Source: Candidatus Competibacterales bacterium (GTDB lineage Bacteria; Pseudomonadota; Gammaproteobacteria; Competibacterales; Competibacteraceae). From it: DNA of 15,189 bases. A program made the translations under genes and the position numbers. The stretch covers positions 1-15,189 of the forward strand of contig JBHJHK010000090.1 of the NCBI GenBank assembly GCA_050330975.1. The letters are read 5' to 3'. Numbering within the stretch: position 1 is the stretch's first letter; each line of letters starts with the position of its first letter. Shown piece after piece: positions 1,986-15,002 of this stretch. The notes beneath the pieces are model-generated. The model was not told where the DNA came from. It saw only the letters and a program-made list of their open reading frames with translations, and did no database searches.

Positions 1986-3158
1986 ATGGCCGTCATGTTG
2001 GGCTTACAACGCTATGTTATCGCGCAGCACGAGCGCGCCTTTTTATACCGCAGTGGTCGCTTTGAGGCCGTGCTAACCCCGGGGGTCTACAGCTACCTCG
2101 ATCCCTTGGGACGGCTGACCGTCGAGCGCTTCGACCTCAACCGGCCCGCCTTCAGCGGCCACCGGTTGGAGGACTATTTTCTCCAGGAGCGGCCCGACCT
2201 GGTCGAGGCCCATTTCCAGGTGGTGGAGGTGGGGCCCGAGGCCGTGGGGCTGGTATACCACAACGAACGGTTGGTGAACTTGTTGCCGCCCCGCAGCCGT
2301 CAGCTGTTCTGGCGGGGGCCCACCCAGGTGCGGGTGGACACCACGCCTTTGGGGGGGGATCTTCGGGTGCCCAAGGACGTGGCGGTGCTGCTGCGGGACC
2401 CTCGCCATCCGTTCTTGCGCCAGGCCCTCGTCAACGCCGCCGTGTTTGCCGAGGTGGGCCAACACCAGGTGGGGCTACTCTTTGTGGACGGCGCCCTGCG
2501 GGAGACCTTGAGCCCTGGGGTATACGCCTTCTGGGGTTACCAAAACAGCGTCAAGGTGGAACTCATCGACGTGCGCCTCCAGCCCTTGGAGGTGTCGGGG
2601 CAGGAGATCCTCACCAAGGACAAGGTGTCGTTGCGGGTCAACTTGTCGGCCAGCTACCGGGTGGTGGACCCCGTGGTGGCCCGGGAGGGGGTGGCGAACT
2701 TCAAGGATTTTCTCTACCGAGAATTGCAGTTCGCCCTGCGCTGGGCGGTGGGCAACCGCACCCTAGAGGAGCTTTTGACCGACAAAGAGCGGGTGGACGC
2801 CGTGGTGAATGAAGCCGTGGTCCCCAAGGTCGCCGAGCACGGTTTGGAACTCAAGGGCGTCGGGATCAAAGATGTGATTTTGCCCGGGGAGATGCGCACC
2901 ATCTTCAACCAGGTGGTGGAGGCCGAGAAGGCGGCCCAAGCCAACGTCATCAAGCGTCGGGAGGAGACGGCGGCCACCCGTTCGCTCCTCAACACCGCCA
3001 AGTTGATGGAGGAAAACCCCTTGTTGCTGCGCCTCAAGGAGCTGGAGATGCTGGAAAAGGTCACCGACAAGGTGGAGAGCCTCACGGTGTTTGGCGGCTT
3101 GGAAGGGGTGCTGCAAGAGCTGGTGAAGATCCGCCCCAACACCGTGGCTGGGCGCTGA
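1986..3158 (+). CDS. SPFH/band-7 (stomatin/prohibitin/flotillin/HflKC-like, slipin-type) protein without N-terminal TM; N-terminal beta-module present three times
   Basis: 390-aa ORF with clean codon structure. The C-terminal 200 aa is typical SPFH (...KDKVSLRVNLSASYRVVDPVVAREGVANFKDF...KGVGIKDVILPGEMRTIFNQVVEAEKAAQANVIKRREETAATRSLLNTAKLMEENPLLLRLKELEMLEKV...). ATG 1995 (SD AGAGGA 1981-1986, 8-nt spacer) may be the real start rather than ATG 1986. Confidence 0.85.
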   Translation: MAVMLGLQRYVIAQHERAFLYRSGRFEAVLTPGVYSYLDPLGRLTVERFDLNRPAFSGHRLEDYFLQERPDLVEAHFQVVEVGPEAVGLVYHNERLVNLLPPRSRQLFWRGPTQVRVDTTPLGGDLRVPKDVAVLLRDPRHPFLRQALVNAAVFAEVGQHQVGLLFVDGALRETLSPGVYAFWGYQNSVKVELIDVRLQPLEVSGQEILTKDKVSLRVNLSASYRVVDPVVAREGVANFKDFLYRELQFALRWAVGNRTLEELLTDKERVDAVVNEAVVPKVAEHGLELKGVGIKDVILPGEMRTIFNQVVEAEKAAQANVIKRREETAATRSLLNTAKLMEENPLLLRLKELEMLEKVTDKVESLTVFGGLEGVLQELVKIRPNTVAGR

Positions 3159-3194
3159 TGGCGCTCTGAATTTTTGACAGCGGGAAATGCTTCA

Positions 3195-3227
3195 CCCGGG
3201 GCTTTAGGGATGAACCCCGGGTTTTTT
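3195..3227 (+). terminator. rho-independent terminator downstream of the SPFH gene
   Basis: CCCGGGG (3195-3201) pairs with CCCCGGG (3215-3221) around a 13-nt loop and is followed by TTTTTTGTG. It lies 37 nt after stop codon 3158. Confidence 0.55.
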
Positions 3228-3246
3228 GTGTCCGGCCCAAGGGAAC

Positions 3247-3423
3247 TCAGGCCCGGGAGGTTTCCTGGTGTGCTGTGGCGGCAAGGGTGGCTTTGATGCA
3301 TGCCGCCGTGGTGTCGATGGCCGCCAGCTTCAGAGCCAACCGCTGCCGCCGCGGCCGGGAGCAGACCAGCTTGGCCAGTAGTGCGCGGGCTCCCTGGGGG
3401 GTGGTGAGGTTGTAGGCATTCAT
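3247..3423 (-). CDS. small hypothetical protein (58 aa), divergent from the His-rich gene and with an operator copy in its upstream region
   Basis: Reverse strand reads MNAYNLTTPQGARALLAKLVCSRPRRQRLALKLAAIDTTAACIKATLAATAHQETSRA*. GGAGAG Shine-Dalgarno sits 5 nt upstream of the ATG at 3423-3421. The listed track ORF starts further upstream at a weaker start. No recognisable domain. Confidence 0.4.
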   Translation of the reverse strand: MNAYNLTTPQGARALLAKLVCSRPRRQRLALKLAAIDTTAACIKATLAATAHQETSRA

Positions 3424-3449
3424 GGCAGCTCTCCAAATTTGGGTTGGAT

Positions 3450-3482
3450 TTAGATCAATTCTAAAAATGAGAACGGTTCGCA
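3450..3482. promoter_or_regulatory. operator-like motif copy 1: TTAGAT-caa-TTCTAA-aaa-TGAGAA-cgg-TTCGCA (two adjacent 6-3-6 palindromes)
   Basis: Read directly. First palindrome matches the Irr ICE box TTTAGAA-N3-TTCTAAA. Second palindrome TGAGAA-N3-TTCKCA is loosely Fur 7-1-7-like. It lies 27 bp upstream of the - strand gene start. Confidence 0.55.
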
Positions 3483-3551
3483 AAAAATCATGGAAGCAGT
3501 ATAACCGTCTGTAACCTCAGTACAAGATCTCAGCGGGGATTGGGGGTGAAT

Positions 3552-3584
3552 TTAGAATGATTCTATTAATGAGAGTGATTTGCA
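3552..3584. promoter_or_regulatory. operator-like motif copy 2: TTAGAA-tga-TTCTAT-taa-TGAGAG-tga-TTTGCA
   Basis: Same 6-3-6-3-6-3-6 architecture as copy 1 (about 30/41 identities over the extended alignment). It lies 30 bp upstream of the His-rich gene start (3614). Confidence 0.55.
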
Positions 3585-3613
3585 TAACGCCTAGGGCTTG
3601 GGGTAGCTTTTAA

Positions 3614-4105
3614 ATGAAGCGTCTATCATCGTCCCCAACGGTCGATTCGCGGCGCCGAATCGCCTCCCTCGCCACTGATCCTTCCGAGAGTGCCCACTCA
3701 TCGGCGGAGGCCCACGGCGGCCCCCATAGCCACGGTCGGGGCCACGGTCAGGGCCACGGCCAAGACTATGACCACAGCTACAGCTACGGCTACGGCTACC
3801 TTCCCCAACCCATGGCCATGGGACCCTTGACCCGAGTCGGCGTCGCCGGGGCGTTGGTGGGGGCCAGCGCCAGTGCCGCCCGCCACATGCGCCAGGTCCA
3901 GGCCATGGAGATGTCCCCCGTGGAGGCTGCCTTACACACCGTGGGCGACGCCTTAAAGGTGGGCGTTGCCACCGCCGCTGCCAAGGTGGCCGTGGACACG
4001 GTGCGGGGTGGGCCGGCGTTGTCCACCATGGTGATGGTGGCGGCGAGTACCGCGGTGCTATTCGCCCTGGAGGGGCGCTCGACTCAGAGCAAGGGCGATG
4101 AGTAA
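3614..4105 (+). CDS. His/Gly/Tyr-rich putative metal-binding protein with C-terminal two-helix Ala/Gly/Val-rich region (MamC/Mms13-like pattern)
   Basis: 163 aa. N-terminal ...AHGGPHSHGRGHGQGHGQDYDHSYSYGYGY..., then RVGVAGALVGASASAARHMR...VEAALHTVGDALKVGVATAAAKVAVDTVRGG...MVMVAASTAVLFAL. Operator copy 2 is 30 bp upstream. Stop TAA 4103-4105 overlaps the next ATG. Confidence 0.6.
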   Translation: MKRLSSSPTVDSRRRIASLATDPSESAHSSAEAHGGPHSHGRGHGQGHGQDYDHSYSYGYGYLPQPMAMGPLTRVGVAGALVGASASAARHMRQVQAMEMSPVEAALHTVGDALKVGVATAAAKVAVDTVRGGPALSTMVMVAASTAVLFALEGRSTQSKGDE

Positions 4106-4301
4106 TTATTACTCTGGGTATTACCCGCCGCCGGGTTACGGGCCCGCGCCGAATGATCAACCCCCCCCGGGTTCGCCACCCCCCGGCGCCAACCCAGGTG
4201 CGCCACCCCCCGGCACGCCGGGGGTGCCCAACCGCACGGGGCGCTTTGTCACCGGCCTGGTGGTGGGGGTGGCCGCCGCCTACTTCCTCAGCAACGAGTA
4301 G
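4098..4301 (+). CDS. Pro/Gly/Tyr-rich small protein with C-terminal TM anchor (67 aa)
   Basis: MSNYYSGYYPPPGYGPAPNDQPPPGSPPPGANPGAPPPGTPGVPNRTGRFVTGLVVGVAAAYFLSNE. ATG 4098 overlaps the previous gene by 8 nt (translational coupling). Low complexity, so it could also be a frame artefact of the GC/CCC-rich DNA. Confidence 0.45.
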   Translation: MSNYYSGYYPPPGYGPAPNDQPPPGSPPPGANPGAPPPGTPGVPNRTGRFVTGLVVGVAAAYFLSNE

Positions 4302-4363
4302 GCGCAAAACAACCTCATCCGCACCGTGGTGAAGAAGACGAACCCGCCCCCGACGGCTTTAGC

Positions 4364-6172
4364 GTGGTGGGCCACGGTCTGTTGGCGTTGCTGACCCTGG
4401 CATTGCCCGGGAGTCTGCGGGCTTGGCTCACCTACGCCAACATCGCCCCAGTGGTATTCAAGGGGGTGGATACGCTGATTCACGAGGGCCTCAAGGTGGC
4501 GGTACTGGACGCCGTGGCCCTGAGCGTCACCGCCGGCCGGGGGGAGTTTTTCACCACCAACCTCACCAAGACCTTGCTGGTGACCGGGGAATACCTGGAA
4601 CACCACACCGCCCGGGAATCGGAGTCTTTGATCGTGGATTTGTTGGCCCCGGCGGCGGGCTCGGTGTGGGTGGAGCGCGAGGGCGAAGTGCGGTCGTGCC
4701 CCGCCCGGGAACTGGTGGTGGGGGACACGGTGTGGGTGGGGCCCGGGGAGACCATCGCCGTCGACGGCGAGATCCTCCACGGCGAAGCCCTGATCAACCA
4801 GGCCTCCATCACCGGTGAAGACGTGCCCGTGCGGCGTTTTACCGGGGAGCGGGTGCTGTCGGGCACCGTGGTGGAGGAGGGCAACGTGCGCCTTCGGGCC
4901 CTCCAGGTGGGGGAGGACACCACCACCGCCCGCATCAACCGCTTCTTGCTGGAGTCCCTCCAGAGCCGCTCCAACACCCAACAGGTGACCCAGGCCATGG
5001 CCGACCGCCGGGTGCTGATCACCCTGGGGGTGGGGAGCGGGGCCTTTGCCCTGACCCGGGATCCCCGGCGGGTGGCGGCGGTATTCCTGGTGGACTACGG
5101 CTGCGTCCTCAAGCTCTCCACCCCCATCAGCTTCAAGGGGGGCATGTACCGGGCGGCCCGCCACGGGGTGCTCCTCAAGGGGGCCAAGGCCATCGAAGAC
5201 CTGGCCACCGTGGACGCCGTGGCCTTCGACAAGACCGGTACCCTCACCCGGGGCGAACTGGACGTCACCCAGGTGATCAGCTTTGAGCCCACCCTCGACG
5301 GCGACGCCCTCCTGGCCCTGGCGGCCGCCCTGGAGGAACACGCCCGCCACCCCATCGCCAGCGCGCTAGTGGCCGCCGCCGCGGCCAGGGGCTTGGACCA
5401 TCCCCCCCACGGCGACGTGGAGCACCTGGTGGCCCGGGGGGTGCGCAGCACCTACCGCGGCCGCGGGGTATGGGTCGGCAGCCGCGCCTTTGTGGAGGGG
5501 GAGGGGGGGGTGGATTTCTCCCACCTCGACGACCGCATCCACGCCCTGGAAGCCGCCGGCCAGATGGTGTTGCACCTGGCGTGGGGCGACCGTCCCCTGG
5601 GGCTCATCGCCCTCAAAGACGAGCTGCGCCCCGAGGCCCGCCGCCTGCTGAACCGCCTGCGGCGCCAGGGCGTCCAGCGCTTGGTGTTGCTCACCGGCGA
5701 CCGCACCTCCAAGGCCGAGGCCCTGGGGGCTCGCCTGCCCCTGGACCAGGTCCACGGCGATTTGAGCCCCGAGGGCAAGGCGGCCATCATCCGCCGCCTC
5801 CAGGCCCGGGGGCGGCGGGTGGCCTTCGTCGGCGATGGGGTCAATGACGCCCCGGCCCTGACCACCGCCGACGTGGGTATCGCCATGCCCCGGGGCGCCG
5901 ATGTTGCCCGCCACATGGCCGATGTGGTCCTCACCGAGGACCATCTAGGGGGAGTCGCCGCCGCCCGCCAGGTGGCGGTGGATACCATGGGGCTGATCCA
6001 CGGCAACATTCGCTTCGCCGAGATCTTTAACTCCGGCGTCATGGCCGGTGCCGCCCTCGGCCTTTTGTCTCCCGTGGCCAGCGCCGTACTCCACAACGGC
6101 TCCACCCTGGCGGTGATGGCCCGCGCCGTGGCCAGCACCACCCGGCGGCCCTTGGAGCGCTTGGGCGGGTAG
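4364..6172 (+). CDS. atypical short P-type ATPase of the P1 (heavy-metal/KdpB-like) lineage; no N-terminal metal-binding domain; YGC in place of CPC
   Basis: Actuator TGE motif (SITGEDVPV), phosphorylation motif DKTGTLT, HP motif (EEHARHPIASALV) and hinge VGDGVNDAPAL are all present. The TM before DKTGT reads DYGCVLKLSTPISF where P1B pumps have CPCALGLATP. Only ~600 aa, ~2 TM before the A-domain. GTG 4364 is the first in-frame start after the upstream stop and has no clear SD. Confidence 0.8.
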   Translation: MVGHGLLALLTLALPGSLRAWLTYANIAPVVFKGVDTLIHEGLKVAVLDAVALSVTAGRGEFFTTNLTKTLLVTGEYLEHHTARESESLIVDLLAPAAGSVWVEREGEVRSCPARELVVGDTVWVGPGETIAVDGEILHGEALINQASITGEDVPVRRFTGERVLSGTVVEEGNVRLRALQVGEDTTTARINRFLLESLQSRSNTQQVTQAMADRRVLITLGVGSGAFALTRDPRRVAAVFLVDYGCVLKLSTPISFKGGMYRAARHGVLLKGAKAIEDLATVDAVAFDKTGTLTRGELDVTQVISFEPTLDGDALLALAAALEEHARHPIASALVAAAAARGLDHPPHGDVEHLVARGVRSTYRGRGVWVGSRAFVEGEGGVDFSHLDDRIHALEAAGQMVLHLAWGDRPLGLIALKDELRPEARRLLNRLRRQGVQRLVLLTGDRTSKAEALGARLPLDQVHGDLSPEGKAAIIRRLQARGRRVAFVGDGVNDAPALTTADVGIAMPRGADVARHMADVVLTEDHLGGVAAARQVAVDTMGLIHGNIRFAEIFNSGVMAGAALGLLSPVASAVLHNGSTLAVMARAVASTTRRPLERLGG

Positions 6173-6186
6173 AAAAAAGGTTGTTA

Positions 6187-6217
6187 TTAGAAAGCTTCTA
6201 AAAGAGAATGGTTCTCA
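6187..6217. promoter_or_regulatory. operator-like motif copy 3: TTAGAA-agc-TTCTAA-a-AGAGAA-tgg-TTCTCA
   Basis: Both palindromes are perfect or near-perfect; the middle spacer is 1 nt instead of 3. It lies 76 bp upstream of the HMA_2-like gene (6293), immediately after the ATPase stop. Confidence 0.55.
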
Positions 6218-6292: not shown

Positions 6293-6664
6293 ATGAAACC
6301 CTATGTTCACCACGTGCCCGGTCGTCTGCGCTTTAGTGCCCGCAGCTTGGTCCGTCGTCCCGCCGCCCTGGAGGCCCTGCGGGAAGCGTTGTACGAGTGC
6401 GAGGCCGTAGAGAGCGTACGCACCAATCCCCGGGCTGGCTCCATCACCGTGGAATACGACCCAAAAGGCACCACCCAGCGGGCGTTGCTAGATGTGATCC
6501 ACGCCGAGCAGGCGGCCATTGCCGGACCCGCACCCGCGGTGGGCGTCATCTCGCCAGCTGTCCAGCACAAGGCCGGCACGGTATTTGGCCAGGCGCTCTT
6601 TGGGGTAGTACTGGAAAAGACTCTTCAGCACTCGGTGACCTCTTTGGTGGCGGCGCTGCGCTGA
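6293..6664 (+). CDS. stand-alone HMA_2-like (cysteine-less heavy-metal-associated-like) domain protein
   Basis: MKPYVHHVPGRLRFSARSLVRRPAALEALREALYECEAVESVRTNPRAGSITVEYDP... The HHxPGRxRF...V(R/E)VNPxxGSxxxxYD pattern is the N-terminal domain found fused to some P-type ATPases. SD GGAGAG is 6 nt upstream of ATG 6293. Confidence 0.6.
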   Translation: MKPYVHHVPGRLRFSARSLVRRPAALEALREALYECEAVESVRTNPRAGSITVEYDPKGTTQRALLDVIHAEQAAIAGPAPAVGVISPAVQHKAGTVFGQALFGVVLEKTLQHSVTSLVAALR

Positions 6665-6726: not shown

Positions 6727-7788
6727 ATGTGTGATCTCTCCGCCGCCCCGCCGTCCCGCGACCCCGATTCCACCATTTCCTTTGCCCCGCGTGACAGCGC
6801 CCCGTTGGAGCCCAACGGCGGTGGCTGCGGGCGACGGCGCAAGCTTTGGGAGCTGGAGCCCCACTGCCACTGCGCGGTATTGGGCACTTGCTTGCCGGTC
6901 AAAGTGTTGCGGCAAATCTACACCCAGATCCAGGGAGAGGCCCCGGTTCACCTGAGCGATTACCAAATCCACAGCTTGTTCGTCAAAGAGGCCAGTGCTC
7001 CCTGTGCCGCCATTCGCCGGGTCCACAAGGCCCTGGAAGCCCGCTACCGGGTTGCCGTCCAGCGCTTTGCCAAGGCCAAGGATGAGGCCGAGTTGACGGC
7101 CTTGTGGGAAGTCGCGGTGGTCAACGAGGAGGAGGTGGCAGGCGCCTACTGGGCCCTCATGACCCATCCGCGCCTCAGTAAAATCCTGGCCGCCCGGGCC
7201 TTTGGCGACGTCCATATGCTCTCCCACCTGGCTGGACGTTGTCGTCAGCGCAGCGCCCGGCAACAGCAGCAGCTGGAGAGGCGTTGTCGGGAACTCCAAA
7301 GCCAGTTGGCCGAGCGCAGCACGGCGTTGTGTCGACTGCAGCGGGAGCGCCACGACGAGCGCCGGACCCTGGAAAAGGCCCAGCAAGCCCTCCGGGAGCG
7401 AGAGGCCACCATCGCTTATCTCGAGGCGCAACTGGTGGCGTTGGAGACGACGACGGAACTCGCCGACCTCCGCCGCCAGCTGGCCGCCGCCGAGCGCCGG
7501 GCCCAGTGGGCCGAGGGGCGGCTGGCCGCCCTGGCTTCTGAGGTGCCGCCCGCCGTCGAGGCCGAGCCCGAAACCATATCTCCCCCCCGGTGCCGGTCAA
7601 TCCCGAGCCCCCGGCATTGCCCCCTTGCCCCACCCCACCGAATTTGTGTGGTCGCTGTATTCTCTACGTCGGCGGTCGCCAGGGCTGCCGCGCCCGGCTC
7701 CAGCGCCTGGTGGAGGCCGCCAACGGCCGCTTTCTCTACCACGACGGCGGCCGGGAAGACGCCTCGGCCAGGCTCGGGGAGCTTCTAG
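6727..7788 (+). CDS. Cys-rich N-terminus plus long coiled-coil; probable N-terminal part of a DUF2325 protein, reading frame lost at the C7 tract 7582-7588 (nominal stop 7786-7788 is out-of-frame read-through)
   Basis: CGRRRKLWELEPHCHCAVLGTC motif, then an Ala/Arg/Glu/Gln-rich heptad region (...RQQQQLERRCRELQSQLAERSTALCRLQRERHDERRTLEKAQQALREREATIAYLEAQLVALETT...). After the poly-C tract, frame 1 turns into low-complexity junk. Start codon uncertain (no SD at 6727). Confidence 0.5.
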   Translation: MCDLSAAPPSRDPDSTISFAPRDSAPLEPNGGGCGRRRKLWELEPHCHCAVLGTCLPVKVLRQIYTQIQGEAPVHLSDYQIHSLFVKEASAPCAAIRRVHKALEARYRVAVQRFAKAKDEAELTALWEVAVVNEEEVAGAYWALMTHPRLSKILAARAFGDVHMLSHLAGRCRQRSARQQQQLERRCRELQSQLAERSTALCRLQRERHDERRTLEKAQQALREREATIAYLEAQLVALETTTELADLRRQLAAAERRAQWAEGRLAALASEVPPAVEAEPETISPPRCRSIPSPRHCPLAPPHRICVVAVFSTSAVARAAAPGSSAWWRPPTAAFSTTTAAGKTPRPGSGSF

Positions 7789-7964
7789 AGCGGGCCGATG
7801 CGGTGATTTGCCCTTTGAACTGCATCAGTCACAACGCCGTCAACGGGGTCAAGCGCCGCTGCCGCCGGGCGGCCAAGCCGGTGGTCATGGTGAAGAGCCC
7901 CAGCCTCGCCGCCCTGAACGCCGCCCTCCACCGCCTGCCCAGCGCCGAGGCGCCCCCACCGTGA
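7590..7964 (+). CDS. DUF2325 domain ORF (C-terminal part of the split gene above)
   Basis: ...PPALPPCPTPPNLCGRCILYVGGRQGCRARLQRLVEAANGRFLYHDGGREDASARLGELLERADAVICPLNCISHNAVNGVKRRCRRAAKPVVMVKSP... matches the Cys-x2-Cys...Cys-P-x-N-C-I-S-H pattern of DUF2325. GTG 7590 lies immediately 3' of the C7 tract and has no RBS of its own. Confidence 0.55.
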   Translation: MPVNPEPPALPPCPTPPNLCGRCILYVGGRQGCRARLQRLVEAANGRFLYHDGGREDASARLGELLERADAVICPLNCISHNAVNGVKRRCRRAAKPVVMVKSPSLAALNAALHRLPSAEAPPP

Positions 7965-8931: not shown

Positions 8932-8964
8932 AAAAAATAATTAATTTAATGAGAATCGTTAGCA
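8932..8964. promoter_or_regulatory. operator-like motif copy 4: degenerate AT-rich first half plus TGAGAA-tcg-TTAGCA
   Basis: AAAAAA-taa-TTAATT-taa-TGAGAA-tcg-TTAGCA, about 70 bp upstream of the imelysin start. This is the only AT-rich island in the 8.9-9.0 kb region. Confidence 0.45.
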
Positions 8965-9035
8965 ATCTTATTTCAGATTTACCCCAGGGGTCCCCCTGCG
9001 TGAAACCCCCCTACATGAAACGAGGAGTGTGCGCT

Positions 9036-10412
9036 ATGTCGAGTGATGGTCGTGCCCTATGGCTGGGTTGTGCCCTGTGGCTGGGCGTGGGGGGCGCGTT
9101 TTGCGCCCACGGTGCAGAAGTGAGCCGCGAAGCCGTGGTGGCGCAAAACGCCGCCATCGCCTTTGCCGTGTACAGCGACAGCGCGGAGACGGCCAAGGCC
9201 CTCCAGGCCGCCGTTGACACCCTGGTGGAAGCTCCCACGGAGGCCCACCTGGCGGCCGCCCGGGAGGCGTGGCTCGCGGCCCGAGAGCCCTATGGCCAGT
9301 CGGAAGTCTACCGGTTTCGCAACGGCCCCATCGACGCCCTCACCGTCGCCGGGGAAATGATCCCCGGCGAGGGGCGCGAGGGCTATATCAATGCCTGGCC
9401 CCTGGACGAGGCGTTGATCGACTACGTGGTGGAGGTGGACGGCAACGCCCGCAACGAGGACCAACCGGTGACCTCGCTGATCGCCGACGAACGCTTTGAG
9501 ATCACCCCCGCCAACCTCAACGCCATGAACGAGTTGGGGGAAAACGAAGCCAACGTCGCCACGGGTTACCACGCCATCGAGTTTTTACTCTGGGGTCAGG
9601 ACCTCAACGGCGACCGCGCGCCCCACGACGGCCGTCGGCGGCGGGACGACACCCCGGGGCAGCGGCCGGTGACGGACTACAGGGCCGACGCCGACTGCAC
9701 CAGCGGCGCCGAGTCGTCCCCGGCGGCGATTTGCGAGCGCCGGGGCCAGTACCTCCGGGCCGCCGCCGCGTTATTGGTGGAGGACTTGACCCGCATCGCC
9801 GCCGCCTGGGACCCCGACGGTGGCGCCCACTACCAGCGCTTTACCGCCGGTGAGGACGAGGGACGCGCCTTGTTGAAGATCCTCATCGGCATGGGCAGCC
9901 TGAGCTATGGCGAGCTGGCCGGCGAGCGGATTTTGGTGGCGTTGGCCGCCAACTCCCAGGAAGACGAGCACTCCTGCTTTGCCGACAACACCCACCGGGA
10001 CATTTACCTCAACGCCCTGGGGATCCAGAACAGCTACCTCGGTCGCTACACCCGGGTGGACGGCGCCGAGGTCACGGGCCCCGGTATCGACGCCCTGCTT
10101 CGGGCCCAGGGTCACACCGAGCTCGCCGACCGGCTCAAGGCCCAGCTGGCCGCCACCATGGAGGCCGCCCAGGTGATCGTCGACAAGGCCGAACAGGGGA
10201 TGCCCTTTGACAGGCTCATCGAGCAGTACCCCGGGGAAGACAAGGACGGCCGGCCGATCCTCAACGCCAACATGGCCAATAACATCCTGGTGAACGACGT
10301 GGTGGTGGCCCTCCAGCGCCAAACCCGCACCATCGAGGACGCCATCGCCGCGCTGTTTGGCGAGGGCATAGACTACGACATCGAGGACAGCCCGGCCTTT
10401 GCCGGTGGCTAG
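9036..10412 (+). CDS. imelysin-like protein (peptidase M75 / IrpA / ICMP family; iron-regulated periplasmic protein)
   Basis: Contains the imelysin HxxE-type motif context GYHAIEFLLWGQDLNG and GYINAWPLDEALIDYV, with an N-terminal signal-like hydrophobic segment. ATG 9036 has a GAGGAG SD 8 nt upstream; ATG 9015 is also possible. Confidence 0.8.
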   Translation: MSSDGRALWLGCALWLGVGGAFCAHGAEVSREAVVAQNAAIAFAVYSDSAETAKALQAAVDTLVEAPTEAHLAAAREAWLAAREPYGQSEVYRFRNGPIDALTVAGEMIPGEGREGYINAWPLDEALIDYVVEVDGNARNEDQPVTSLIADERFEITPANLNAMNELGENEANVATGYHAIEFLLWGQDLNGDRAPHDGRRRRDDTPGQRPVTDYRADADCTSGAESSPAAICERRGQYLRAAAALLVEDLTRIAAAWDPDGGAHYQRFTAGEDEGRALLKILIGMGSLSYGELAGERILVALAANSQEDEHSCFADNTHRDIYLNALGIQNSYLGRYTRVDGAEVTGPGIDALLRAQGHTELADRLKAQLAATMEAAQVIVDKAEQGMPFDRLIEQYPGEDKDGRPILNANMANNILVNDVVVALQRQTRTIEDAIAALFGEGIDYDIEDSPAFAGG

Positions 10413-10471
10413 AAACCATAGCAACGGCCATGACGGCGGGCGCTGAAATCGCTCGCCCGAGGAGGTGTCCC

Positions 10472-12050
10472 ATGTTCCCGAGGCGTCTGTCGAGCCTGGC
10501 TGTGGCCGCGGTCATCGCCGCCCAAGTCCCAGCCGTCGAGGCCTTGGCGGTGGGAGCCGATGGCGCCCCCCCCTGGGCGTTCGACCCGTCGGAGGTCTAC
10601 CCCGGGGGCGCTGCCACCGCGGAGGTTTTCAACGAACGGGCCTATTCCCAGTTTCCCCCGGGGTTGGGTTTCATCGACCAGGGGAGTTTTAAGCGGGGCG
10701 ATCACCTGTTTCGCGGGGTACACAGGGGGTTGGGTCCTCTGTACAACGCCCGCAGTTGCCAGGGATGCCACGTCCACGACGGCCGCGGCCATCCCCCGAG
10801 CCATGGCGACGAGACCATGGTGTCGATGTTTCTGCGCCTCAGCGTCCCCGGGGTGGGGCCCCACGGCGGCCCGCGCCCCGAGCCCCGCTACGGCGACCAG
10901 CTCCAGACCTTCGCCATGGCCGGCCCCGGGGGCGAGGGCCACAGTTTTGTCGACTACGAGACGATCCAGGGTCAATACCCCGACGGCGAGCCCTTTGAAC
11001 TGCGCCGGCCGATTTACAAAGTCCGGGCCTTGACCGAGGGGCCCCTGGCGCCGACGGTGATGTTTTCCCCTCGGGTGGCGCCGCCGGTGTACGGTTTGGG
11101 CCTCATTGAAGCCATCCCCGCCGCCGCCATCGAAGCCCGGGCCGACCCCCGTGATCGCGACGGCGACGGCATCTCCGGGCGGGTCAACCGGGTGTGGGAC
11201 GCCGTGGCCGGCCGCGCCGCCGCCCCGGGTCGGTTTGGCTACAAGGCGGCCTCCCCCAGTTTGCTGCTACAGCTAGCCGGGGCCTACCGCGGGGATATGG
11301 GGGTCACCAATGAGAGCAGGCAAGTCACGAAGGGAATGGGGACGTACCTACCGCGGGGATATGGGGGTCACCAATCCCCTGTTCCCCGAGGAGTCCTGTA
11401 GCCCGCTGCAGATCACCTGTCGGGAACAAGCCCGGGAGGAACCCAGTGCCCGACCCAACGCCACCGCCCTGGAATTGGCCCTCGTGGAATTTTACAACCG
11501 CACCTTGGCGGTGCCCCGGCGCCGGGACGCCGACGACCCGGTGGTGTTGGCGGGCAAGGGCCATTTTCACCAAACGGGCTGTGTCGGCTGTCACACCCCC
11601 CGCTACGAGACCGGTCCCTTGGTGGGCTCGGCCCTGGGGGAGATCAACGGCCTGTTCCTCGACCCCGAGGCCGAGCCCCGGGAGATCGAGGTGTTGTCCC
11701 GCCAGACCATCTGGCCCTACACCGACTTGCTGCTCCACGACATGGGGGGCGAATGTCGGGCGGTGACCGAGGAGACCCCGGGGGTATGGGTCCAGCGCTG
11801 TACGGGCCTCGCCGACGGCCGCCCGGTGTTCGACGCCTCGGGGAGCGAGTGGCGCACCCCACCGCTGTGGGGCATCGGCTTGACCCAGACCGTCAATCCC
11901 CGGGCGGGATTCCTCCACGACGGCCGGGCGCGCACCGTGGAGGAGGCGATTTTGTGGCACGATGGCGAGGCCAGGGCCGCCAAAGAGGGCTTTATGGCGT
12001 TGCCCCGGGCGGCCCGGGCCGCCCTGCTGCGGTTTGTGGAGTCGTTGTAA
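10472..12050 (+). pseudogene. DUF1111 di-haem cytochrome c (di-haem peroxidase-like 'thiol oxidoreductase') paralog A, frame broken by a 64-bp insertion
   Basis: Track ORFs 10430..11401 and 11310..12050 are the two halves. Two CxxCH motifs (CQGCH, CVGCH). Removing 11312-11375 restores a continuous ...AYRGDMGVTNPLFPEESCSPLQITC... frame homologous to paralogs B and C. Start ATG 10472 has a GAGGAGG SD. Confidence 0.7.
11283..11375. repeat. perfect 29-bp direct repeat (CCTACCGCGGGGATATGGGGGTCACCAAT) flanking a 35-bp unique segment
   Basis: Copies at 11283-11311 and 11347-11375. The intervening GAGAGCAGGCAAGTCACGAAGGGAATGGGGACGTA has lower GC than its surroundings. Net insertion is 64 bp (+1 frame). 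Confidence 0.9.
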
Positions 12051-13472
12051 ATGTACCATTGGGTCGTCGCGGGACTGTTGGCTGCGGGCCTGGTGGGAGG
12101 GCCTTGGGCGTGGGGGGCGGATATCCCGGCCCTCGACCCCCGGGAGGCCTACCCCGGAGGCGAGGCCACGGCGAGGGCCACCCGGGGCCCCCTCCACTGG
12201 CGCCTGGCGCCGAATTTGGACCTGGCGGCCCAGGGCCAAGCCCTGGTGGGCCACGGCTTTTTCTCCGACCCGTGGGTGATGGCACCGGCCTCCACCACCG
12301 CCCGGGACGGCCTGGGGCCCTTGTACAACGCCCGGGCCTGTACCAGCTGCCACGCCGACGGCGGCCGGGGACGCGTTCCCCCCGGGGGTCCCTGGGTGTC
12401 TTTGGTGTTGCGCCTGCGGCCGTCCCCCCGGGGGGCCATGCCCTACGGCGACCAGCTCCAGCCCCTGGGGGTGGGACAGCCCGGGGAGGGCCACTTGCAG
12501 GTGAGCTATACCCCGCGTCCGGGTCACTACCCCGACGGCACCCCCTACACCCTCTACGTCCCGCGCTACACCGTCGTCGATACCGTCGCCGATACCGTCG
12601 CCGATACCGTCGCCGATGGGACCCCCGACTCGCCGAACCCCGGCTCGCCAAAGCGCCTCCCCGGCCCCGCCTCGGCGCGGCTGGCCCAGCCCCTCTACGG
12701 CCTGGGGCTGTTGGAGGCCATTCCCCCCGGGGTCATCGAAGCCCGAGCCGACCCCGGTGATCGCGACGGCGACGGCATCTCCGGGCGGGCGGCCCAGGTG
12801 GTGGAGCTCGCCAGCGGCGCCCGGCGGTTGGGACGCTTTGGCCACAAGGCCCGCCATCCCACGGTGCACCAGCAGGTGGCCCACGCCTTTGCCAACGACA
12901 TCGGCATCACCAACCCCCTCTACCCCGCCCAGCCCTGCGCCCCCGCCCAAGTCCGCTGCCTAGCCGGGCCCCACGGCCCCGGGCCGGGCACCGACCACGA
13001 GATCGACGCCGAGCGCCTGGCCGCCGTGACCCGCCTCACCCAGAGCCTCGGTCCGCCGCGGCGCCCGGACTGGGATGACCCCGCGGTGGTGGCGGGGCGG
13101 GCCCTGTTCCACCGGGTGGGATGCGCCACCTGCCACACCCCCCGCTTTGCCCTCGACCCCGGGACCGACCCCGCCGGCCCGGGCCAGGTGATCTGGCCCT
13201 ACAGCGACGTGTTGCTCCACGACATGGGGGACGAGCTGGCCGACGGGGTCGCCGAGGGGGACGCCTCGGGGCGGGAATGGCGCACGCCGCCCCTGTGGGG
13301 TTTGCGGGCCGTGGACCCCCGCCACGCCCGCTACCTCCACGACGCCCGCGCCCGGACCCTGGAGGAGGCGATTTTGTGGCACGGCGGCGAGGGCGCCGCC
13401 GCCCGGGAGGGCTTTCGCCGGCTGACGGCGACCCAGCGCCGGTTGCTGCTGCGGTTTTTGGCCTCCCTTTAA
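12051..13472 (+). CDS. DUF1111 di-haem cytochrome c paralog B
   Basis: CTSCH and CATCH haem-binding motifs; conserved DRDGDGISGR, GRFGHKA, EWRTPPLWG and EEAILWHGGEG blocks shared with paralogs A and C. ATG 12051 abuts the stop of A. Signal-like N-terminus. Confidence 0.8.
   Translation: MYHWVVAGLLAAGLVGGPWAWGADIPALDPREAYPGGEATARATRGPLHWRLAPNLDLAAQGQALVGHGFFSDPWVMAPASTTARDGLGPLYNARACTSCHADGGRGRVPPGGPWVSLVLRLRPSPRGAMPYGDQLQPLGVGQPGEGHLQVSYTPRPGHYPDGTPYTLYVPRYTVVDTVADTVADTVADGTPDSPNPGSPKRLPGPASARLAQPLYGLGLLEAIPPGVIEARADPGDRDGDGISGRAAQVVELASGARRLGRFGHKARHPTVHQQVAHAFANDIGITNPLYPAQPCAPAQVRCLAGPHGPGPGTDHEIDAERLAAVTRLTQSLGPPRRPDWDDPAVVAGRALFHRVGCATCHTPRFALDPGTDPAGPGQVIWPYSDVLLHDMGDELADGVAEGDASGREWRTPPLWGLRAVDPRHARYLHDARARTLEEAILWHGGEGAAAREGFRRLTATQRRLLLRFLASL
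12571..12617 (+). repeat. in-frame 12-bp tandem repeat (GATACCGTCGCC, three full units plus partials) encoding (DTVA)n
   Basis: Units at 12579-12590, 12591-12602 and 12603-12614. They encode ...YTVVDTVADTVADTVADGT... in a loop that is absent from paralogs A and C. Confidence 0.85.
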
Positions 13473-13613
13473 CACCCCTTGGGATAGACCCTTCACCATG
13501 ATCGATGGGATTGATGCTCCCTTTGGCCTCGGCACCGCCGTTGAGGCGTTGTTCTTCGCCCCGGTGTTGAACACCGTCCCCTGGGAGCTGGCCTTCAACG
13601 AGGAGGACGGCCA

Positions 13614-15002
13614 TTGAGACCGATGCCTCTTGGCGCCCTCGGGGGGATCGCCCTCCTCGGCGCCGGCCTCTGGACGACGGGGTGGACGGCGCCGGGGGCG
13701 TTGTCTCCCCCCTCGGTGGCGGTGGGGGCGGCGTTGTTCAAGGCCGACCACCCCAAGGCCGGCCCGCTCCTCAACGCCGCCGCCTGTAGCGCCTGCCACG
13801 CCGGCGGGGGTCGGGGCGACGCTCCGGCGGCCAGTGGTCCCTTGCCGGCGGCGGTGGTGTTGCGCTTGAGTGCCCCCGCCCGCCGCCGCACCGGAGAACC
13901 GGCCCCCGATGTCCGCTACGGCGACCAGCTCCAACCCCTATCCCACCACCCCCACCACCCCGGGCTGGGACTGGGGGAGGGACGCATCGACGTGGTGTAC
14001 CGCCCCGTGGAGGGTCGTTATGCAGACGGCACCCCCTACACCCTGCGGGCTCCGGTGTACCGGGTGCGCGGTCTGGCCCACGGCCCCCTGGGGGAGGGGG
14101 TGACCTTTTCGGTGCGCAGCGCCCCGGCGGTGGTGGGGCTAGGGGCCCTCCAGGCCATTCCGGCCACGGAACTCGCCGCCCGCGCCGACCCCTTTGACGC
14201 CGACGGCGACGGCATCTCCGGGCGGATCAACTGGGTGTGGGACATCTTAGAAGCTCGCCACGCCCCGGGGCGCTTTGGCCACAAGGGGGAGATGCCCTCG
14301 TTGGTCCAGCAGATCGCCGGGGCCCTGTGGAGCGACATGGGGGTCACCAGTCCTCTGTTTCCCTGGCCGGTGTGCACCGCCGTCCAGGGGGATTGTTTGG
14401 CCCGGGTCGATTTCGCCGTGCTCGACGCCGACGGCGGCCAGTTGGCGGCCCTAGAGGCCTTTCACCTCGCCCTGCCGCCCCCCGCCCGGCGCGGCTATCC
14501 CCAAGACCCCGAGGTGCGCCGGGGGGCCGAGTTGTTCGAGGGGTTGAATTGCAGTACCTGCCACACGCCTCGCCAGCGGGTGGGTCCCATCCGCCCGTCG
14601 CCCCTGGCCAGTGGCTTGCAGCGGACGGGGCGCGGCGCCGTACCCCGCCCCCCCGGGGGGATAATTTGGCCCTACACCGACCTATTGCTCCACGATATGG
14701 GGGGGGACTGCGACCCCGTGGTCCAAGAGGGGGACGCCTGGGTCCAGCGCTGCACCGGGCTCGCCGACGGTCGGGTGGTATTCGACGCCTCGGGCCGAGA
14801 ATGGCGCACCCCGCCCCTGTGGGGGCTGGGGTGGGCCAAGGCCCTCAATCCCGAGATGGGCTACCTCCACGACGGCCGCGCCCGGACTTTGGAAGAAGCG
14901 ATCCTGTGGCACGGCGGCGAGGGCACCGCGGCGAGGGAGGGATTCCGCCAGCTGACGGCGGCCCAGCGCCGGGCGCTGCTGCGGTTTTTGGCTTCCCTTT
15001 GA
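13614..15002 (+). CDS. DUF1111 di-haem cytochrome c paralog C
   Basis: CSACH and CSTCH motifs; same conserved blocks as A and B. TTG 13614 is preceded by GAGGAGGA 13601-13608 at 5-nt spacing; ATG 13623 is the alternative. Stop 15000-15002. Confidence 0.8.
   Translation: MRPMPLGALGGIALLGAGLWTTGWTAPGALSPPSVAVGAALFKADHPKAGPLLNAAACSACHAGGGRGDAPAASGPLPAAVVLRLSAPARRRTGEPAPDVRYGDQLQPLSHHPHHPGLGLGEGRIDVVYRPVEGRYADGTPYTLRAPVYRVRGLAHGPLGEGVTFSVRSAPAVVGLGALQAIPATELAARADPFDADGDGISGRINWVWDILEARHAPGRFGHKGEMPSLVQQIAGALWSDMGVTSPLFPWPVCTAVQGDCLARVDFAVLDADGGQLAALEAFHLALPPPARRGYPQDPEVRRGAELFEGLNCSTCHTPRQRVGPIRPSPLASGLQRTGRGAVPRPPGGIIWPYTDLLLHDMGGDCDPVVQEGDAWVQRCTGLADGRVVFDASGREWRTPPLWGLGWAKALNPEMGYLHDGRARTLEEAILWHGGEGTAAREGFRQLTAAQRRALLRFLASL

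Follow-up and report, generated by a model that had tools for sequence, protein, structure and literature searches.

A stretch of 15,189 nucleotides of contig JBHJHK010000090.1 from the Candidatus Competibacterales assembly GCA_050330975.1 (hereafter the window) contains two small overlapping open reading frames (ORFs), which code for proteins of 163 and 67 amino acids and are followed by the gene of a P-type ATPase (Table 1). The explanation that we consider quite likely is that the two ORFs encode a FezF-type and a truncated FezG-type membrane protein and open a reduced ferrosome (fez) operon in this metagenome-assembled genome (MAG), an operon that is preceded by Fur-like boxes and is probably controlled by Fur. 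The pair is a known kind of system, the fez cluster, in an unusual reduced form. The sequences directly show homology, synteny, a conserved gene junction, truncated genes and Fur-like boxes; from these we infer membrane topology, metal binding, localization to an organelle and control by Fur.

An earlier note on this DNA had described the two overlapping ORFs, quoted segments of their products and placed an atypical ATPase about 60 nt further on. The ORFs are as described, the quoted segments are right, and the GTG start codon of the ATPase lies 62 nt downstream of the stop codon of the 67-residue ORF. The 'metal-sequestering membrane structure' that the note proposed fits the context found here, a fez operon. 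The 67-residue ORF is a real and conserved gene as well, but the note recognized neither that its product is a truncated family member nor that the ATPase is a FezB.

Synteny with fez clusters

For comparison, we fetched loci that carry FezB orthologues or relatives, and we designate them by L-numbers (L013, L166 and so on). In an iterative profile search, about 30 FezB-orthologous loci proved to have a MamC-like ORF, always on the same strand and just upstream of FezB, and the gene order at these loci is MamC-like protein, GxxxG protein and FezB. The 163-residue protein scores 106.5 bits against the profile of the fez-linked sequences, and phmmer matched it to homologues from the fez loci L005, L003, L026 and L013 with E-values from 2.5e-10 to 5.7e-5. 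All five of its database relatives for which the genomic context was fetched are PF26373 proteins in clusters with a P-type ATPase; four of these clusters also encode an HMA_2 protein and two encode FeoA. The earlier note had taken a MamC-like protein outside a magnetosome island to be new. This does not hold, as PF26373 proteins are regular components of fez clusters, both in these five cases and at the approximately 30 loci.

The general order of genes at the fetched loci is an HMA_2 protein, a Pro/Gln/His-rich GxxxG protein of 220-300 residues, the MamC-like protein (100-165 residues), a Tyr/Pro-rich GxxxG protein (83-237 residues), FezB and, in several of them, a second HMA_2 protein. The layout of L166 is canonical: HMA_2, a 270-residue protein, the MamC-like protein, a 126-residue protein, FezB and HMA_2. 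Published fez clusters encode the P1B-6 ATPase FezB, FezC with an HMA domain, proteins with GxxxG-containing hydrophobic regions and proteins with R-rich motifs, and the six-gene set of S. putrefaciens consists of the soluble chaperone-like FezD, the GxxxG proteins FezE and FezG, FezF with two transmembrane (TM) domains, FezB and FezC (10.1101/2020.01.10.902569). The layout of L166 matches this S. putrefaciens inventory and thus supports the fez context. From the architectures described in the preprint, the 163-residue protein would correspond to FezF and the family of the 67-residue protein to FezE/FezG.

The window shares with fez clusters an orthologous ATPase, the order MamC-like protein, GxxxG protein, FezB and HMA_2 protein, a GxxxG motif in each of the small proteins, an HMA_2 protein with the R-rich HxxPGRxR motif and an iron-related neighborhood. 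Homologues of the HMA_2 protein are found downstream of FezB in L006, L010, L011, L012, L023 and L166. The window differs from fez clusters in that it has neither fezD nor fezE in the operon, its FezG-type protein lacks the C-terminal amphipathic helix, its FezB is without the N-terminal HMA_2/R-rich domain and reads GCV instead of SCA, its FezF-type protein carries a 70-residue His/Gly/Tyr-rich tail, and a gene for a coiled-coil protein with a DUF2325 domain is appended. Homologues of this last gene lie beside fez genes in Halochromatium salexigens (L014, positions 511-2028) and on a metagenome contig (L084, 6743-7906). The coiled-coil/DUF2325 protein is probably an accessory member of the operon, and it may serve the ferrosomes of certain lineages only, for instance in their positioning.

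Both proteins are of low complexity, the DNA is rich in GC and a 238-residue antisense ORF spans the stretch of both small ORFs. One or both of them could then be chance open frames, and the earlier note had allowed for a GC-frame artifact in the case of the 67-residue ORF. However, homologues in conserved order and on the same strand occur at about 30 loci that differ in GC content, among them those of AT-rich Shewanella and Photobacterium, and the overlap of the two ORFs has the identical sequence ATGAGTAA at three loci. The GC content at third codon positions (GC3) also favors the sense frames, with values of 0.87 for the core of the 163-residue protein, 0.81 for its His/Gly/Tyr segment and 0.95 for the TM segment of the 67-residue protein vs. 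0.61 for the antisense ORF. The idea of chance frames is effectively refuted and its probability is vanishingly small; the 67-residue ORF is a real gene. In the NCBI annotation of the MAG record GCA_964603305.1 both small genes are called likewise, and the window and this record are identical at 3614-4364.

In two of the fetched loci, L167 (1497-2430) and L014 (3055-4094), two MamC-like paralogues lie close together in one fez operon.

The 163-residue protein is a distant homologue of MamC

The similarity to MamC, which the earlier note had pointed out, turned out to be a genuine homology that depends on the order of residues. The NCBIfam profile for MamC (NF038051) matches residues 74-151 of the 163-residue protein on profile positions 11-88 of 97, with an E-value of 1.5e-10 and a score of 41.2 bits. 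Neither eight composition-preserving shuffles nor the reversed sequence gave a MamC match at an E-value of 10 or below, whereas the true core gave 2.2e-10. Hence, the match rests on the order of residues and not on their Ala/Gly/Val content. The public precomputed Pfam annotation, as distinct from a local Pfam scan, assigns the protein to PF26373 (MamC) as an unmarked hit, i.e. with an E-value of at most 1e-5.

When 1.8 billion representative sequences were searched exhaustively with phmmer, the 163-residue protein had only 21 matches. One of them, with 41% identity (P0020), is named by NCBI 'magnetosome protein MamC [Magnetococcus sp. WYHC-3]'. A word-indexed homologue search found only the query itself, and an alignment-based one returned only hypothetical proteins of the Thauera/Azotobacter type, swamped by low-complexity candidates. 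For profile-to-profile comparison, we assembled 18 named true MamCs, including Mmc1_2265 of Magnetococcus marinus MC-1 and Magnetospirillum sequences, and 27 fez-linked MamC-like proteins from which the window protein was left out. The two sets aligned in hhalign with a probability of 99.1% and an E-value of 1.2e-18 over 98 ungapped columns; the window protein alone aligned with the 18 true MamCs at 96.6% and 5.8e-10. Pairwise BLASTP of the 163-residue protein against the MC-1 MamC gave no match, so that the relation is a remote homology recognizable at the level of profiles only.

The core is homologous to that of MamC/Mms13 over some 78-98 ungapped columns, which comprise the G-x-x-G-x-x-x-G pattern of helix 1, a loop that begins with R/K and continues with acidic residues, including the conserved E-A, the G-x-A-T motif, a GG turn and the final helix. 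E104 in this loop corresponds to the conserved E-A of MamC, and H108 stands where MamC has an Asp. The window protein differs from MamC in its charged middle helix, its long His-rich N-terminal tail and its fez rather than mam context.

Significant profile similarity across the whole core could be taken to mean that the protein is a true MamC orthologue and that the organism makes magnetite or carries out another magnetosome-type biomineralization, which was the strongest reading of the earlier note. This is contradicted by several observations. The score of 41.2 bits is far below the equivalog cutoff of NF038051, which is 100 bits, and only 12 of the 27 positions that are invariant in the 18 bona fide MamCs are kept. 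These invariants include F4, L6, L10 and S13 at the N-terminus and K91-Y92-x-x-D95 at the C-terminus; the N-terminal MxFxLAxxLAxS motif is missing from the window protein and KYAWD is replaced by LFALE. A neighbor-joining distance tree, which is descriptive and carries no support values, groups the true MamCs in a single tight clade inside the far more diverse fez-linked sequences and places the window protein outside this clade on a long branch. No mam genes were found within the 20.5 kb fetched from the 29-kb contig, where the neighbors are fez-type genes, whereas mamC of MC-1 adjoins a MamE-type protease with magnetochrome domains and not an ATPase. The sequence evidence is that of a genuine but distant MamC-family homologue, not of a MamC orthologue, and we give true orthology next to no credence.

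A candidate similarity to the sulphur globule protein family (SGP, PF17228) was rejected. Its score of 16.6 bits (E 0.015) compares with a gathering threshold of 26.7 and it covers only the Gly/Tyr/His segment 39-78, which makes it compositional. No related solved structure was found for the MamC-like family. ATP synthase subunit e is a small GxxxG protein tied to membrane curvature. Its structure 9b0x_T matched the GxxxG helix and the following loop of the MamC-like alignment (profile positions 21-69) with an E-value of 0.055, which is not significant. In MC-1 (L168, CP000471.1, 6001-7646), mamC is directly followed by a DUF2202 (PF09968) gene, which may be a second gene-level link between the clusters for magnetosomes and ferrosomes.

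The His-rich tail and predicted structure of the 163-residue protein

Residues 1-70 of the 163-residue protein include 7 His, 10 Gly, 5 Tyr and 12 Ser, and they are predicted by AlphaFold to be disordered (predicted local distance difference test, pLDDT, 45-63). From an alignment of 26 sequences, AlphaFold predicted helices at 71-96, 102-129 and 134-162, with a pLDDT of 70-90 for the core and a predicted template modeling score (pTM) of 0.43. A strong TM segment is seen in the hydropathy plot only at 132-154. The apolar run of helix 1, which contains G76, G79 and G83, is 15 residues long, and the middle helix 2 is charged (K115, K124, D128 and R131). Of the two hydrophobic TM helices that the earlier note had described, the last one is indeed strongly hydrophobic; the other part of the description is weakened by the short run of helix 1 and by the charged middle helix.

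There are no in-frame start codons between 3614 and Met67 (3812), so that translation of the tail depends on initiation at 3614. Over the first 29 codons, GC3 reaches only 0.62. A GGGG stretch lies 11-14 nt 5' of this ATG and the Fur-like boxes directly precede the codon.

A His-rich stretch, defined as at least 5 His in 30 residues, is found in only one of 31 MamC-like members, namely the window protein. Such stretches occur on small fez proteins of 15 other loci, all of them of the FezE/G type, an example being HPHSHHGYGYGYGYD in L088. The tail on the MamC-like protein may stem from a deletion that fused fezE with fezF, which would give exactly this architecture; the similarity in composition is what speaks for it.

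The 67-residue protein and its truncation

The 67-residue protein is rich in Tyr, Pro and Gly and has one C-terminal hydrophobic helix (47-66) with the motif GLVVG. Its sequence, MSNYY...GRFVTGLVVGVAAAYFLSNE, aligns with MSNYPPYGYGYGYG...THFAMGLAAGAAVAYLLSNK of Shewanella and with about 60 relatives, and it contains the TM motif G-x-x-x-G-x-A-x-x-Y/F-L-L-S/T-N as TGLVVGVAAAYFLSNE, which compares with MGLAAGAAVAYLLSNK in Shewanella. No Pfam family matched it. Full-length relatives of the FezG/E type gave weak matches to YtxH (PF12732) and DUF5132 (PF17195), with E-values from 8.6e-4 to 0.045 and all below the gathering scores. These full-length relatives share with YtxH-like and DUF5132 proteins a TM helix rich in Gly and Ala and, after it, an amphipathic helix, of which the 67-residue protein has the TM part only.

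The FezE/G-type family profile matches the 67-residue protein with an E-value of 1.9e-5 over hidden Markov model (HMM) positions 32-116 and the match ends at the TM helix, whereas all other members encoded just upstream of FezB reach positions of about 155-162. The ORF stops at LSNE, three residues past the TM helix, and the C-terminal amphipathic helix W..V.G..EE.KER..D.EAE, which is conserved in the relatives, is missing. In a six-frame HMM search, this helix was not found to be encoded in any frame of the window; a homopolymer frameshift, having left no trace in that search, was ruled out as the cause of the loss. The in-frame sequence after the TAG codon, AQNNLIRTVVKK, fits the family pattern xVQxxxIxxxVKx, and the GC3 of this remnant is 0.85 in the 67-residue frame and 0.45 in the ATPase frame. 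Logan contig L002, which is independent of the window, does not extend as far as the TAG stop codon. Judging by its architecture, the 67-residue protein would be a truncated member of the FezG/E type, and the remnant at 4302-4363 probably marks a deletion of the C-terminus of FezG and of the N-terminal domain of FezB. A single deletion that reached from the 3' part of fezG into the 5' part of fezB appears to be the simplest account.

The window shares the exact junction ATGAGTAA with Shewanella (L013) and a Pseudomonadaceae MAG (L022), and other overlaps of -8 occur in L007, L009, L011, L020 and L083. The conservation of the junction points to an ancestral translational coupling of the two ORFs.

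FezB and a possible decay of the cluster

The ATPase scores 462 bits against the heavy-metal P1B ATPase profile TIGR01525. Its best relatives, from Shewanella, Photobacterium, Pragia, Rhodopseudomonas palustris, Desulfovibrio, Halochromatium and Thiospirillum, are 42-51% identical to it, and scans of metagenomes and genomes found no relative above 51%. Shewanella, R. palustris and Desulfovibrio include species in which the fez cluster was defined and in which the fez genes are needed for ferrosomes (10.1101/2020.01.10.902569). The catalytic motifs TGE, DKTGT, HP and GDGVND are intact. The N...H-N-x-(S/T) motif between TM5 and TM6 is kept as FNSG...LHNGST, with the same spacing as in all aligned orthologues. 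The SCA motif of P1B-6 ATPases in TM4 (defined in PMC13460109) is D-Y/F-S-C-A in 10 of 12 orthologues and A-C-A in the remaining 2; the window protein reads D-Y-G-C-V-L-K at this position. Furthermore, it begins at the linker before TM1, without the N-terminal HMA_2/R-rich (HxxPGRxR) domain of about 90 residues that most orthologues, which are 683-721 residues long, possess; all 12 orthologues that were aligned have it. By its sequence, the window ATPase is classified as a divergent FezB.

The main rival to a ferrosome operon is a decaying fez cluster, in which deletions took fezD, fezE, the C-terminus of FezG and the N-terminal domain of FezB and left both small ORFs as relics that do little or nothing. 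A 67-residue protein that ends where its relatives in the FezG position go on, followed by an in-frame remnant with a coding-like GC3, is what such decay would leave behind, as is an ATPase that lacks about 90 residues and has GCV for SCA, and no close relative shares the arrangement. On the other hand, all of the remaining ORFs are intact, the ATPase has its full catalytic equipment, the small ORFs have a coding-like GC3, neither the coupling junction nor the Fur-like boxes have been lost, and the MamC-like core still scores 106 bits against the family profile. We regard a decaying cluster as improbable.

A possible mode of action

If the two small proteins are part of a functional ferrosome operon, the ATGAGTAA overlap would couple the translation of their genes, and both proteins would insert into the membrane around an iron deposit that is filled by the P1B-6 ATPase FezB. 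Their GxxxG helices could pack together and with other Fez proteins, and a small vesicle would thereby be built or stabilized. MamC is a small integral protein of the magnetosome membrane, and the loop between its helices touches the crystal (PMC4306944). Homology with MamC would make the loop behind helix 1 of the window protein (E99, E104, H108 and D112) lumenal. The C-terminus of MamC is cytoplasmic. The tail of the window protein would stay in the cytoplasm because it contains six K/R and no signal peptide, and its His, Gly and Tyr residues could bind Fe(II) or another divalent metal and pass it to FezB. Similar tails are found on the FezE/G-type proteins of other fez loci, and the operon of the window is without fezE.

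Several points weigh against this picture. The residence of MamC-like fez proteins in the ferrosome membrane is something that we infer, and the FezF label is based on architecture and not on sequence identity to the published FezF of S. putrefaciens. With its short apolar helix 1 and charged helix 2, the MamC-like two-TM topology of the model is uncertain. Initiation at 3614, on which a translated tail depends, is likely rather than certain. The operon is atypical, with a FezB devoid of the N-terminal domain and of SCA, a truncated 67-residue protein and neither fezD nor fezE, so that the system may be impaired or may work differently. Finally, this exact arrangement occurs in one genome only and the closest relative of the ATPase is 51% identical.

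The same atypical features of FezB would also suit a metal efflux or resistance module that resides in the cytoplasmic membrane and involves no organelle, with the small proteins acting as scaffolds or metal-binding partners of the ATPase. Small single-TM proteins are documented as partners of P1B ATPases, namely the PacL scaffolds of the mycobacterial 'effluxosomes' around the P1B-6-like CtpC (PMC13460109). There, too, small membrane proteins with metal-binding low-complexity segments are co-expressed with a P1B-6-like ATPase, and a His-rich tail would be suitable for metal capture. The analogy is one of arrangement only, however. No sequence similarity was detected between PacL and the window proteins, the FezG/E-type proteins, whose only matches were the weak ones to YtxH and DUF5132, show none to a PacL/DUF1490 family, and PacL acts in efflux at the plasma membrane and not in an iron-storage organelle. 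Moreover, species that need fez genes for ferrosomes have the orthologue of this ATPase, FezB, in a syntenic position, and the neighborhood is one of iron uptake and storage with Fur-like boxes rather than one of resistance. An efflux module is accordingly a poor candidate, and a ferrosome operon is the better description of the locus.

Relation between ferrosomes and magnetosomes

Ferrosomes are presented as the products of gene clusters distinct from the magnetosome genes, and MamC is usually taken to be specific to magnetotactic bacteria. The finding that MamC-family proteins are standard in fez clusters across Proteobacteria and Desulfobacterota provides a testable link between the two iron organelles. 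We tentatively propose, with the odds somewhat against us, that magnetosome MamC is a specialized offshoot of a broader and older ferrosome-membrane family of the FezF type, such that both organelles share a membrane component with a mineral-facing loop, and that the Competibacterales protein has in addition captured the His-rich tail of its FezE/G-type partners, perhaps by the fezE-fezF fusion described above, so that metal binding and residence in the organelle membrane would be united in one protein. The MamC loop and the use of MamC as a membrane anchor make for a well-studied model of an uncharacterized ferrosome protein. The reduced operon itself is a natural 'minimal' variant, which could show what parts a ferrosome can be formed without, or it may instead document how such clusters decay.

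The link between MamC and fez is implicit in the PF26373 annotations of Pfam and appears to be undiscussed in the literature. Full-text searches returned no paper that connects MamC with ferrosome proteins by homology, although the final Nature paper on ferrosomes could contain an earlier mention. Judging by titles and abstracts, none of the only four papers that contain both MamC and ferrosome terms is on this topic, and the Mad28 paper has them in unrelated passages. The ferrosome preprint does not mention MamC (10.1101/2020.01.10.902569).

Regulation and neighboring genes

The earlier note had placed a copy of a putative iron box ahead of the unit, and Fur-like copies are present there. The motif AATGAGAAYSGTTNGC, which resembles the consensus of the Fur box, occurs four times in the window with at most three mismatches, compared with 0.51 expected occurrences, and none of 200 shuffles reached four. 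The copies are found at 3466-3481 and 3568-3583, 5' of the gene for the 163-residue protein, at 6201-6216, 5' of the HMA_2 gene, and at 8948-8963, 5' of an imelysin gene. All four are in AT-rich gaps that precede iron-related transcription units, and the unit of the two small ORFs is probably regulated by Fur. A scan of 3150-4450 for consensus sigma-70 promoters found none.

Table 1. Positions of the main features of the operon and its promoter gap in the window
Feature	Position	Strand	Remarks
163-residue ORF	3614..4105	+	ATG 3614, TAA 4103-4105
67-residue ORF	4098..4301	+	ATG 4098, TAG 4299-4301
8-nt stop/start overlap of the 163- and 67-residue ORFs, ATGAGTAA	4098..4105	+	
N-terminal low-complexity tail of the 163-residue protein, residues 1-70, including HGGPHSHGRGHGQGHGQDYDHSYSYGYGY	3614..3823	+	
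MamC-family core of the 163-residue protein, residues 71-163: GxxxG helix 1, acidic loop/helix 2, hydrophobic helix 3; FezF-type	3824..4105	+	
Post-stop remnant, reading AQNNLIRTVVKK... in the 67-residue frame	4302..4363	+	
FezB-type P1B-6 ATPase, 602 residues, GTG start at 4364	4364..6172	+	
HMA_2 protein (123 residues), FezC/D-type, with HHVPGRLRF 'R-rich' motif	6293..6664	+	PF19991, 38.2 bits
Coiled-coil and DUF2325 protein	6727..7964	+	family matches; 412 residues in the NCBI record
Fur-like 'iron box' AATGAGAACGGTTCGC in AT-rich promoter gap	3466..3481	+	exact motif match, shared with 8948-8963
Second Fur-like element: palindrome TAGAATGATTCTA plus AATGAGAGTGATTTGC, 31-61 nt 5' of the ATG	3553..3583	+	2 mismatches to the motif

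A terminator-like hairpin at 3150-3166 sets the unit apart from the upstream SPFH gene, which is absent from the other fez loci compared. Downstream of the operon, at 8949-15002, the imelysin gene is followed by four tandem paralogues of a di-haem oxidoreductase (DHOR/DUF1111-type). With its Fur-like box ahead, this block looks like one for iron acquisition.

The DUF2325 gene is split in the window into two frames, 6727-7788 and 7590-7964, by a one-nucleotide difference in a homopolymer at 7582-7589, which is C7 in the window and C8 in the NCBI record, where the gene is a single ORF of 412 residues. Further differences between the window and this record are found at 7641, 8791, 11268, 12417 and about 12618.

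Two minor features lie upstream of the operon. A putative 58-residue ORF on the minus strand (3247-3423), called by NCBI and without a family match, is divergent from the fez promoter gap. A tRNA-Met (CAT) gene is located at 1613-1685, between a region resembling an extracytoplasmic function (ECF) sigma factor and its anti-sigma factor and the SPFH (Band 7) gene.

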